Assembly (NCBI RefSeq): GCF_053078305.1 | Contig: NZ_CP166879.1 | Length of the DNA stretch: 64,000 nucleotides | Strand: one strand, 5' to 3' | Part shown: piece by piece, positions 24,001 to 27,000 of the stretch | Numbering within the stretch: the stretch's first letter is position 1 | Layout of the letters: the number at the start of each line of letters is the position of its first letter | Program-made: the position numbers and the translations under genes | The notes under the pieces: model-generated | What the model was told of the DNA's origin: nothing | Database searches by the model: none | What the model saw: the letters and a program-made list of their open reading frames with translations, nothing else

Positions 24001-27000
24001 TTCTCTGTGCCAAACGACGTCGCAAGTCGGTTCTCGATTAGCAACAGCGGAAAAGGCATGACGGATAGCAACGGGACTGCAATCGCCTCCCTGACCGGCA
24101 CGTTAGCGGGCACGCATATGATCACGGCTCGTCTGGCTAACAGCAATGTCAGCGATACACAGCCAATGACGTTTGTGGCGGATAAAGACAGAGCGGTTGT
24201 CGTTCTGCAAACATCGAAAGCGGAAATCATTGGGAATGGCGTGGATGAGACGACTCTGACAGCAACAGTTAAAGATCCTTTTGATAACGTGGTTAAAAAT
24301 CTTTCAGTAGTCTTCCGCACCTCCCCCGCAGACACGCAACTGAGTCTGAACGCGCGTAATACTAATGAGAACGGTATTGCTGAAGTTACCCTTAAGGGCA
24401 CGGTTTTGGGTGTTCATACAGCCGAAGCCATACTGCTTAACGGCAACAGAGATACGAAGATAGTCAATATTGCGCCCGATGCCAGCAACGCGCAGGTCAC
24501 CCTGAACATCCCTGCACAACAGGTGGTGACGAATAACAGCGACAGCGTGCAGCTGACGGCGACGGTGAAAGATCCGTCAAATCATCCGGTGGCGGGGATA
24601 ACGGTAAACTTCACCATGCCACAGGACGTGGCGGCAAACTTTACCCTTGAAAATAACGGTATTGCCATCACTCAGGCCAATGGCGAAGCGCATGTCACGC
24701 TCAAAGGTAAAAAAGCGGGCACAAATACGGTAACCGCAACGCTGGGTAACAATAATGCCAGCGATGCGCAGCCAGTCACCTTCGTGGCGGATAAGGACAG
24801 CGCAGTTGTCGTTCTGCAAACATCGAAAGCGGAAATCATTGGGAATGGCGTGGATGAGACGACTCTGACAGCAACAGTGAAAGATCCTTTTGATAACGCA
24901 GTAAAAGATCTACAGGTCACCTTCAGTACCAACCCGGCAGATACTCAACTTAGTCAGAGCACAAGCAATACTAACGACAGTGGTGTTGCTGAAGTTACCC
25001 TTAAGGGCACGGTTTTGGGTGTTCATACAGTCGAAGCCACACTGCTTAACGGCAATGGCTATACGACGACAGTCAATATTGCGCCCGATGCCAGCAACGC
25101 GCAGGTCACCCTGAACATCCCTGCTCAACAGGTGGTGACGAATAACAGCGACAATGTGCAGCTGACGGCGACGGTGAAAGACCCATCGAATCATCCGGTA
25201 GCGGGGATAACGGTAAACTTCACCATGCCACAGGACGTTGCGGCAAACTTTACCCTTGAAAATAACGGTATTGCCATCACTCAGGCCAATGGGGAAGCGC
25301 ATGTCACGCTGAAAGGTAAAAAAGCGGGCACGCATACGGTTACCGCAACGCTGGGTAATAACAATACCAGTGATTCGCAGCCGGTAACATTTGTGGCGGA
25401 CAAAACCTCGGCTCAGGTTGTCCTGCAGATGTCAAAAGATGAGATCACAGGTAATGGCGTCGATAACGCAACGCTAACTGCAACGGTTAAAGATCAGTTC
25501 GACAATGAGGTGAATAATCTTCCGGTAACATTCAGCTCAGCCTCTTCAGGACTCACCCTGACCCCGGGAGTAAGTAATACCAATGAGTCTGGCATCGCGC
25601 AGGCCACTCTCGCAGGCGTTGCCTTTGGTGAGCAGACGGTCACTGCATCACTGGCTAATAATGGTGCCAGCGACAACAAAACTGTGCATTTTATTGGCGA
25701 CACAGCGGCGGCAAAAATTATCGAGTTGACGCCTGTCCCAGACAGCATAATCGCCGGTACCCCGCAGAACAGCTCCGGCAGCGTCATCACCGCCACAGTC
25801 GTTGATAATAATGGCTTTCCGGTGAAAGGTGTGACTGTGAACTTCACCAGCAGAACAAACTCTGCCGAAATGACGAATGGCGGCCAAGCCGTAACGAACG
25901 AACAGGGTAAGGCTACCATCACTTATACCAATACCCGCTCCTCGATAGAATCAGGAGCGAGACCGGATACCGTTGAGGCCAGTCTGGAAAATGGTAGCTC
26001 CACGCTTAGCACATCAATTAATGTCAATGCTGATGCGTCTACGGCACATCTCACTTTGCTACATGCACTTTTTGATACAGTCTCCGCAGGCGAGACAACC
26101 AGTCTGTATATTGAGGTGAAGGATAATTACGGCAACGGTGTCCCCCAGCATCAGGTAACCCTCAGCGTTTCACCAAGTGAAGGCGTGACCCTCAGTAATA
26201 ACGGTATATATACTACCAACTACTACGGCTATTTTTACGCAAGCTTTACCGCTACAAAAGCCGGGGTTTATCAAGTGACGGCAACCCTCGATAATGGCGA
26301 TTCGATGCAACAAACAGTGACCTATGTGCCGAACGTCGCGAATGCTGAAATCACGCTGGCAGCCTCGAAGGATCCGGTAATTGCCGACAATAACGATCTC
26401 ACGACACTAACAGCAACAGTCGCTGATACAGAGGGCAATGCGATAGCCAACACTGAAGTAACATTTACTCTGCCGGAAGATGTGAAGGCGAACTTCACGC
26501 TGAGCGATGGCGGTAAAGCGATTACTGATGCTGAAGGCAAAGCGAAAGTCACGCTGAAAGGTACAAAAGCAGGCGCTCATACTGTTACAGCATTGATGGC
26601 TGGCGGTAAGAGCGGACAACTGGTGGTGAACTTTACTGCGGATACGCTCACTGCGCAGGTTAATCTTAACGTTACCGAGGACAATTTCATCGCCAATAAC
26701 ATTGGGATGACCAAACTTCAGGCAACAGTGACTGATGGAAACGGCAACCCGTTAGCCAATGAGGCGGTAACATTCACACTACCGGCAGATGTGAGCGCAA
26801 GCTTCACTCTCGGACAAGGCGGTTCCGCCATTACTGATATCAACGGCAAGGCTGAAGTTACACTGAGCGGTACAAAATCCGGCACCTATCCCGTGACAGT
26901 TAGCGTGAACAGTTACGGTGTCAGTGATACGAAGCCGGTGACTTTGATTGCCGATGCTGGTACCGCTAAAATGGCTGGTTTTACCGCATCATCAAGCTCA

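Follow-up and report, generated by a model that had tools for sequence, protein, structure and literature searches.

Tandem Ig-like domain units in the long allele of the Escherichia coli adhesin gene yeeJ and their length variants

The published long YeeJ variant and related adhesins

Two variants of the inverse autotransporter adhesin gene yeeJ, those of Escherichia coli MG1655 and UMN026, were described by Martinez-Gil et al. (2017, Sci Rep 7:11326, PMC5595812). According to the available part of that publication, the “long” variant yeeJ(UMN026) contains an extra 906-bp fragment that encodes three additional Big domains, and the overall identity between the two variants is 86%. The long variant was found in 11 of 42 genomes, 8 of 26 ECOR strains, and 17 of 44 other strains, and its occurrence in strain collections was confirmed by PCR. 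No difference between the MG1655 and UMN026 variants was observed in biofilm assays. The same text describes a periplasmic LysM domain, demonstrates peptidoglycan binding of YeeJ by experiment, predicts a C-terminal lectin domain, and argues that the start of the MG1655 protein is located 18 codons further in, leading to 2340 instead of 2358 aa.

The allele analyzed here lies in a 64,000-nt stretch of contig NZ_CP166879.1 (assembly GCF_053078305.1), which is referred to as the window. It agrees with yeeJ(UMN026) in the gene, the chromosomal site, the 906 bp extra relative to MG1655, and the three Big domains taken from a repeated section. The published prevalence is also similar to that obtained here, approximately 41% of yeeJ-positive complete genomes, and no essential difference from the window allele was identified. 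The window allele is an ordinary two-unit long allele of the published yeeJ(UMN026) type and is already known. The breakpoints, the direction of the event, and the age of the duplication are not given for yeeJ(UMN026) in the available part of PMC5595812, and neither a three-unit class nor the direction of the 906-bp event was found in the published YeeJ work examined, this paper included. Beyond the publication, the present analysis adds minor detail, namely the breakpoints and likely direction of the 906-bp event, a hybrid domain, a three-unit class, and an estimate of how old the duplication is.

Intimin, invasin, and FdeC (type Ve) share with YeeJ an IAT β-barrel followed by tandem Big_1/Invasin_D3 domains. 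However, their stalks are much shorter, and they are paralogues of YeeJ, not orthologues. Their NCBIfam models score below cut-off on YeeJ, which passes no NCBIfam model at its cut-off. The nearest solved relative by sequence is 5LDY, an invasin-family Ig-domain protein (E = 4e-4). Surface proteins with identical repeats in variable number, such as the streptococcal alpha C/Rib family and staphylococcal Bap, also resemble YeeJ, as they are adhesins with serial Ig-like or comparable domains, the length of which is changed by recombination between repeats. In those proteins, the repeats show little or no difference in DNA sequence, and their copy number varies widely and often, whereas the YeeJ copies are 89.5% identical and occur in three length states in approximately 2,900 genomes. 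A hypervariable array of identical repeats, as in contingency-type loci, was considered for YeeJ and rejected on account of these three length states and of a four-unit query that gave no single-piece match.

Domain anatomy of YeeJ and the 609-bp repeat

The yeeJ reading frame is open from 20995 to 29070 on the + strand of the window. Its start is ambiguous, as the frame is open from a TTG at 20995 and public annotations use ATGs giving 2675 or 2666 aa. Translation probably begins at the ATG at 21070, and the resulting coding sequence comprises 2666 aa plus stop (21070–29070, +). This copy is intact, and a 100% identical 2666-aa protein is present in public E. coli genomes on 16 contigs. The earlier note on this DNA, made from the letters alone, had named the gene yeeJ, and the identity to K-12, the gene order of K-12 and EDL933, and the Pfam matches to IAT_beta and Big_1 all agree with that name. 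IAT_beta (PF11924) was located at aa 144–419 (E = 1.9e-112), where it forms an N-terminal barrel that is followed by a C-terminal passenger of Big domains; Big_1 matched 16 stretches of the protein (E = 6e-259). LysM gave only a weak match of 15.4 bits, which is under the Pfam cut-off of 20.9, and Invasin_D4 scored 27.3 bits at aa 2474–2547. The last 156 aa gave no Pfam match at E up to 0.1.

Within the local array, a domain alignment revealed that two Big_1 subtypes alternate in the order B0-A1-B1-A2-B2-A3. The first repeat unit (24181–24789, +) is composed of A1 (24181–24477, 99 aa) and B1 (24478–24789, 104 aa), and the second (24790–25398, +) of A2 (24790–25086) and B2 (25087–25398). Each of these four domains is a single Big_1 match in Pfam, so that a unit is indeed a pair of Ig-like domains, as the earlier note had proposed. 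B0 (23869–24180, +) is an older B-type Big_1 domain that precedes the units and shares 40–41% aa identity with B1 and B2, while A3 (25399–25698, +) is an older A-type domain that follows them and shares 48–51% with A1 and A2.

The direct repeat with its 609-nt spacing was detected by a repeat search of the window. Self-BLAST of yeeJ aligned 24105–24926 with 24714–25535 at 84.2% identity over 824 nt (E = 0), and the second-best internal repeat of the gene reached approximately 70%. The units are therefore far more similar to each other than neighboring domain repeats are, as had been claimed. Tandem Repeats Finder left the 609-bp repeat unreported because the longest period of this tool is 500. 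The repeat is genuine, its coordinates are correct, and chance is far from sufficient to explain it. Two adjacent 609-bp units had been placed at 24172–25389, where they are present and in register, although the limits 24172–24780 and 24781–25389 are shifted by 9 nt from the domain boundaries, the phase having been set arbitrarily.

The description of the units as almost identical did not hold. They differ at 64 of 609 positions, corresponding to 89.5% nt identity, which divides into 85.9% nt and 79.8% aa identity for A1/A2 and 92.9% nt and 96.2% aa identity for B1/B2. Thirty of the 64 mismatches are concentrated in a divergent A-domain patch at 24290–24379 (partner 24899–24988, +), which also holds most of the fixed differences between A1 and A2. 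The longest exact run common to both units is a 74-nt tract of A1/A2 at 24196–24269 (partner 24805–24878, +). It contains zero third-position differences (P ~0.009 by permutation; P ~0.004 by a hypergeometric test on third positions) and may reflect either ancient conversion or local constraint.

Several features of yeeJ in other strains were noted in passing. Its 3′ half (window 25399–29070) exists as two deep allele groups with approximately 87% nt identity, dS of 0.25–0.27, and a high dN of 0.12. Haplogroup 1 contains the window, 07-4299, RM14516, and the three-unit allele of contig L010, and haplogroup 2 contains K-12, UTAK-4, EDL933, E. coli C, B-JRPT-4119, and O27:H7; this grouping is independent of the length variant. 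The gene is often inactivated in other strains, as seen in five records and one further match. IS3-family insertions are present in F2_81 and UTAK-4, an IS421 insertion in OkiPb01703, internal stops in B-JRPT-4119 and O27:H7, and a frameshift in NCTC9038. A premature yeeJ stop in the ST410 clone has been published (PMC10786849). Furthermore, yeeJ-like contigs were found under other labels, namely a “Bacillota bacterium” MAG contig (96% identical), a 278-bp Alkalicoccobacillus contig (96%), and a Collinsella MAG contig (69%), together with a 99% identical protein labelled Klebsiella pneumoniae. Such records under other organism names probably represent contamination or mis-binning, and the 69% identical Collinsella-labelled contig may truly represent an enterobacterial orthologue that has diverged.

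Age of the duplication and changes in array length

A 2.6-kb region containing the array matched 2,920 of 5,426 complete E. coli genomes. At least 80% of this query was covered by one match in 1,205 of the 2,920 yeeJ-positive genomes, EDL933 included. Overall query coverage was unusable for assigning length classes, as off-register pieces were joined (79% instead of 65% for K-12), and the classes were hence judged by record spans and single-piece matches. Forty matching genomes were sampled across the set. Here, all full-length matches, including that of EDL933, had a span of 2,601 bp, and all K-12-like matches had a span of 1,695 bp (1,694 bp in one genome); no one-unit allele was seen among the 40.

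The divergence between units was examined for eight two-unit alleles (window, 07-4299, EDL933, E. coli C, B-JRPT-4119, RM14516, F2_81, and O27:H7), and a base-by-base comparison covered 14 alleles. The identity between unit 1 and unit 2 was 88–90% in all eight, while orthologous copies were 92–100% identical between strains, and the nearest neighbor of each copy in the two-unit alleles was always the same-position copy from another strain. The dS value between units was 0.29–0.30 (A1/A2: dS 0.30, dN 0.11; B1/B2: dS 0.29, dN 0.017). The corresponding values were 0.012 for mtfA (window versus K-12), 0.052–0.056 for shiA (window versus K-12 or EDL933), 0.04–0.07 for the 5′ part of yeeJ, and 0.13 for the orthologous A1 to B2 segment (window versus EDL933). 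The divergence between units is thus five to six times that of shiA, on a scale where dS is a rough clock, as the identical tract and patches in the paralogue state show some exchange between the copies. Judged by these sequence comparisons, the duplication is old, older than the diversification of the sampled alleles.

The earlier note had instead proposed a recent duplication or gene conversion, and had named long reads with a single copy as the result that would reveal an assembly artefact. That one unit was wrongly assembled as two is hardly conceivable: all that speaks for it is that repeats are generally error-prone in assembly, while the copies differ at 64 positions with no common exact run beyond 74 nt, approximately 1,200 finished genomes have the same structure, 16 public contigs encode the identical protein, and the variant was PCR-confirmed in the strain collections of PMC5595812. 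The hazard of assembly collapse raised in the same note is weak because exact runs do not exceed 74 nt and the two-unit structure recurs in those finished genomes. The similarity of the units, 84–90% compared with at most 70% for other domain pairs, could also be taken to indicate that the second unit was duplicated recently in this strain or lineage. This is very improbable in view of the 64 mismatches and dS of approximately 0.3, against 0.01–0.06 in the flanking genes. The same diverged pair is moreover present in all eight two-unit alleles, which span both deep haplogroups, its copies group by position and not by strain, and the approximately 1,200 complete genomes with this structure show that it is not lineage-restricted. 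Another explanation is that ongoing gene conversion (concerted evolution) keeps the units similar, in which case the duplication might be much older than dS suggests. The 74-nt tract without synonymous differences (P ~0.004), the 5 fixed differences versus 10 shared polymorphisms in B1/B2, and isolated paralogue-state patches in some strains are consistent with such a process. It is nevertheless rather doubtful, as the identity of paralogues within strains equals that between strains, implying no homogenization, A1 and A2 have 24 fixed differences, copies never group by strain, and the excess of shared polymorphism mostly disappears after allowing for third-codon-position variation, by an estimate that is not a formal test. 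Some exchange between copies is likely from these sequence patterns. Conversion is hence retained in the form of short patches, but not as what keeps the copies similar. A paralogue-state statistic for conversion (83 of 86 polymorphic sites) was discarded, since it is trivially expected at 90% identity between copies.

The K-12 protein consists of 2358 aa, compared with 2666 aa for the window, which agrees with the difference of about 300 aa given in the earlier note. This gap was attributed to the 609-bp duplication, but it arises from a 906-bp, three-domain difference in which A1 is joined to B2, not from the 609-bp (203-aa) unit. In BLAST, the identity of the window and K-12 genes amounts to 97.6% in the initial 3,206 nt and to 87.3% in the 3.8 kb at the 3′ end. 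The alignment consists of two blocks, which share 23 nt on the K-12 side and are displaced from each other by 906 nt. BLAST and a three-way nucleotide comparison assigned the 906 bp absent from the MG1655 allele to 24279–25184 (+), which runs from within A1 through the complete B1 and A2 domains into the first part of B2. The position of the breakpoint is uncertain by 23 nt, and 24256–25161 is equally valid. An LTATVKDP-coding patch of approximately 23 nt lies in A1 at 24256–24278 (+), with its right copy in B2 at 25162–25184. The K-12 allele has a hybrid domain, of which the first 33 aa are A1 and the remainder is B2, joined at this LTATVKDP-coding patch common to both subtypes. Every domain of the long array is of one subtype from end to end, and the same applies to B0, A3, and the domain upstream.

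A scan of species-representative contigs with the repeat segment gave no relatives, and a scan of species representatives with the N-terminal 560 aa gave only paralogous inverse autotransporters (≤50%) and mis-binned MAG contigs. As no outgroup orthologue was found, the direction of the 906-bp event is judged from the hybrid domain and from the way in which length states are spread over the haplogroups. Both deep 3′ haplogroups include two-unit alleles, and the two short alleles that were compared belong to the second only. In its 3′ part, K-12 yeeJ shares 98.3% identity with the two-unit allele of O27:H7. Recombination between alleles could obscure this distribution of length states. We infer that the short K-12 allele was generated from a two-unit ancestor by an in-frame 906-bp deletion. 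The reverse course, in which the short form is ancestral and the long form was made by insertion or duplication of 906 bp, would suit the majority held by short alleles (approximately 59%), and the available part of PMC5595812 speaks of the “presence” of the fragment, which is neutral on direction. It is distinctly improbable, as the K-12 domain is a hybrid of subtypes while all long-form domains are of a single subtype, the derivation of A1, B1, A2, and B2 from one hybrid domain requires several events against one deletion, and two-unit alleles are found in both haplogroups but short alleles in only one.

A further length state was identified by a protein search, which gave a 2,880-aa YeeJ with three A-B units, and contig L010 agrees with it at the DNA level. 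The three-unit interval of 2,439 bp (5827–8265 in L010; 6001–8439 in L043–L046) was matched in one piece by at least 25 complete genomes, which include PCN033, several O166:H15 isolates, and NCTC9038. The three-unit yeeJ of PCN033 is intact and encodes 2,870 aa. Unit-diagnostic sites indicated that the first unit of these alleles is of type 1 and the last of type 2, while the middle unit is of type 2 through A and most of B and then of type 1 near the 3′ end of B. The switch point was located at positions 518–569 of the unit in L010, PCN033, and G1/2, at 467–503 in NCTC9038, and at 585–593 in VCSW7. This pattern suggests that the three-unit alleles arose by unequal crossover between B2 and B1. 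Since the switch points differ among strains, more than one crossover event is suggested, and the alleles probably arose more than once, though later conversion instead of independent events could also account for the different points. A synthetic four-unit query gave no single-piece match, and a four-unit allele was not found. The approximately 2,900 genomes thus exhibited three length states, which are short, two-unit, and three-unit (at least 25 genomes).

Genomic setting and meaning of the length variation

The window contains, in this order, tRNA-Ser (19601–19690), mtfA, tRNA-Asn (20682–20757), yeeJ, a 350-aa family-9 glycosyltransferase reading frame on the − strand, and shiA. The gene order around yeeJ is identical in K-12, 07-4299, and EDL933. 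The glycosyltransferase gene (29652–30704, −) is intact and convergent with yeeJ. Its product exhibits weak heptosyltransferase similarity under the NCBIfam cut-offs, and in K-12 the corresponding gene contains an internal stop and is a pseudogene. Some autotransporters are modified by heptosyltransferases. Positions 1–19600 of the window are occupied by the early region of a lambdoid prophage integrated beside tRNA-Ser, which carries an integrase (18523–19548), an 812-aa exonuclease (15823–18261), and three phage-type tRNA genes (Arg, Arg, and Met; 982–1231). The best complete-genome match of this region covers 80% of the query at 97% identity, and a prophage likewise occupies the tRNA-Ser site in EDL933.

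The region very probably belongs to a rod-like YeeJ passenger in which A1B1 and A2B2 represent an old duplication fixed in long alleles, with the window as an ordinary two-unit case and with occasional changes in length between repeats. An ancestral two-domain unit would have been duplicated in tandem long ago to give A1B1 and A2B2. The duplication would then have been fixed in all long yeeJ alleles and kept in frame while its copies diverged to 89.5% nt identity. The array length would change only occasionally, through recombination between its own repeats. Recombination of A1 with B2 at the common LTATVKDP patch may have caused the loss of 906 bp and formed the K-12 hybrid domain, and unequal crossover of B2 with B1 may have formed the three-unit alleles, probably more than once. 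Each such event would make the stalk longer or shorter by whole Ig domains. Concerning the array as a whole, we lean slightly toward a length module that has three or more states and recombines slowly but recurrently, in which K-12 is a derived hybrid deletion and the three-unit form, of approximately 2,870 aa and approximately 1% of yeeJ-positive genomes, was produced by crossovers at two or three points.

In invasin and intimin, tandem Big domains build a rigid stalk to which each domain contributes roughly 4 nm. The reach of YeeJ should therefore differ among its three forms by three to five domains, and the suggestion that repeat length alters how far the adhesin projects from the surface is plausible by analogy with these rods. 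The importance of the present observations is mostly a matter of book-keeping, as the long allele and the 906-bp difference were published in 2017 and both forms behaved alike in biofilm assays. K-12 YeeJ, which serves as a surface-display scaffold, appears to have an Ig domain that is a deletion-derived hybrid and not the ancestral architecture. Typing or GWAS based on read mapping to K-12 yeeJ will place three to five domains of long alleles incorrectly. The three natural lengths would constitute a test series already at hand if the ability to reach beyond O-antigen or capsule depends on the length of the stalk.
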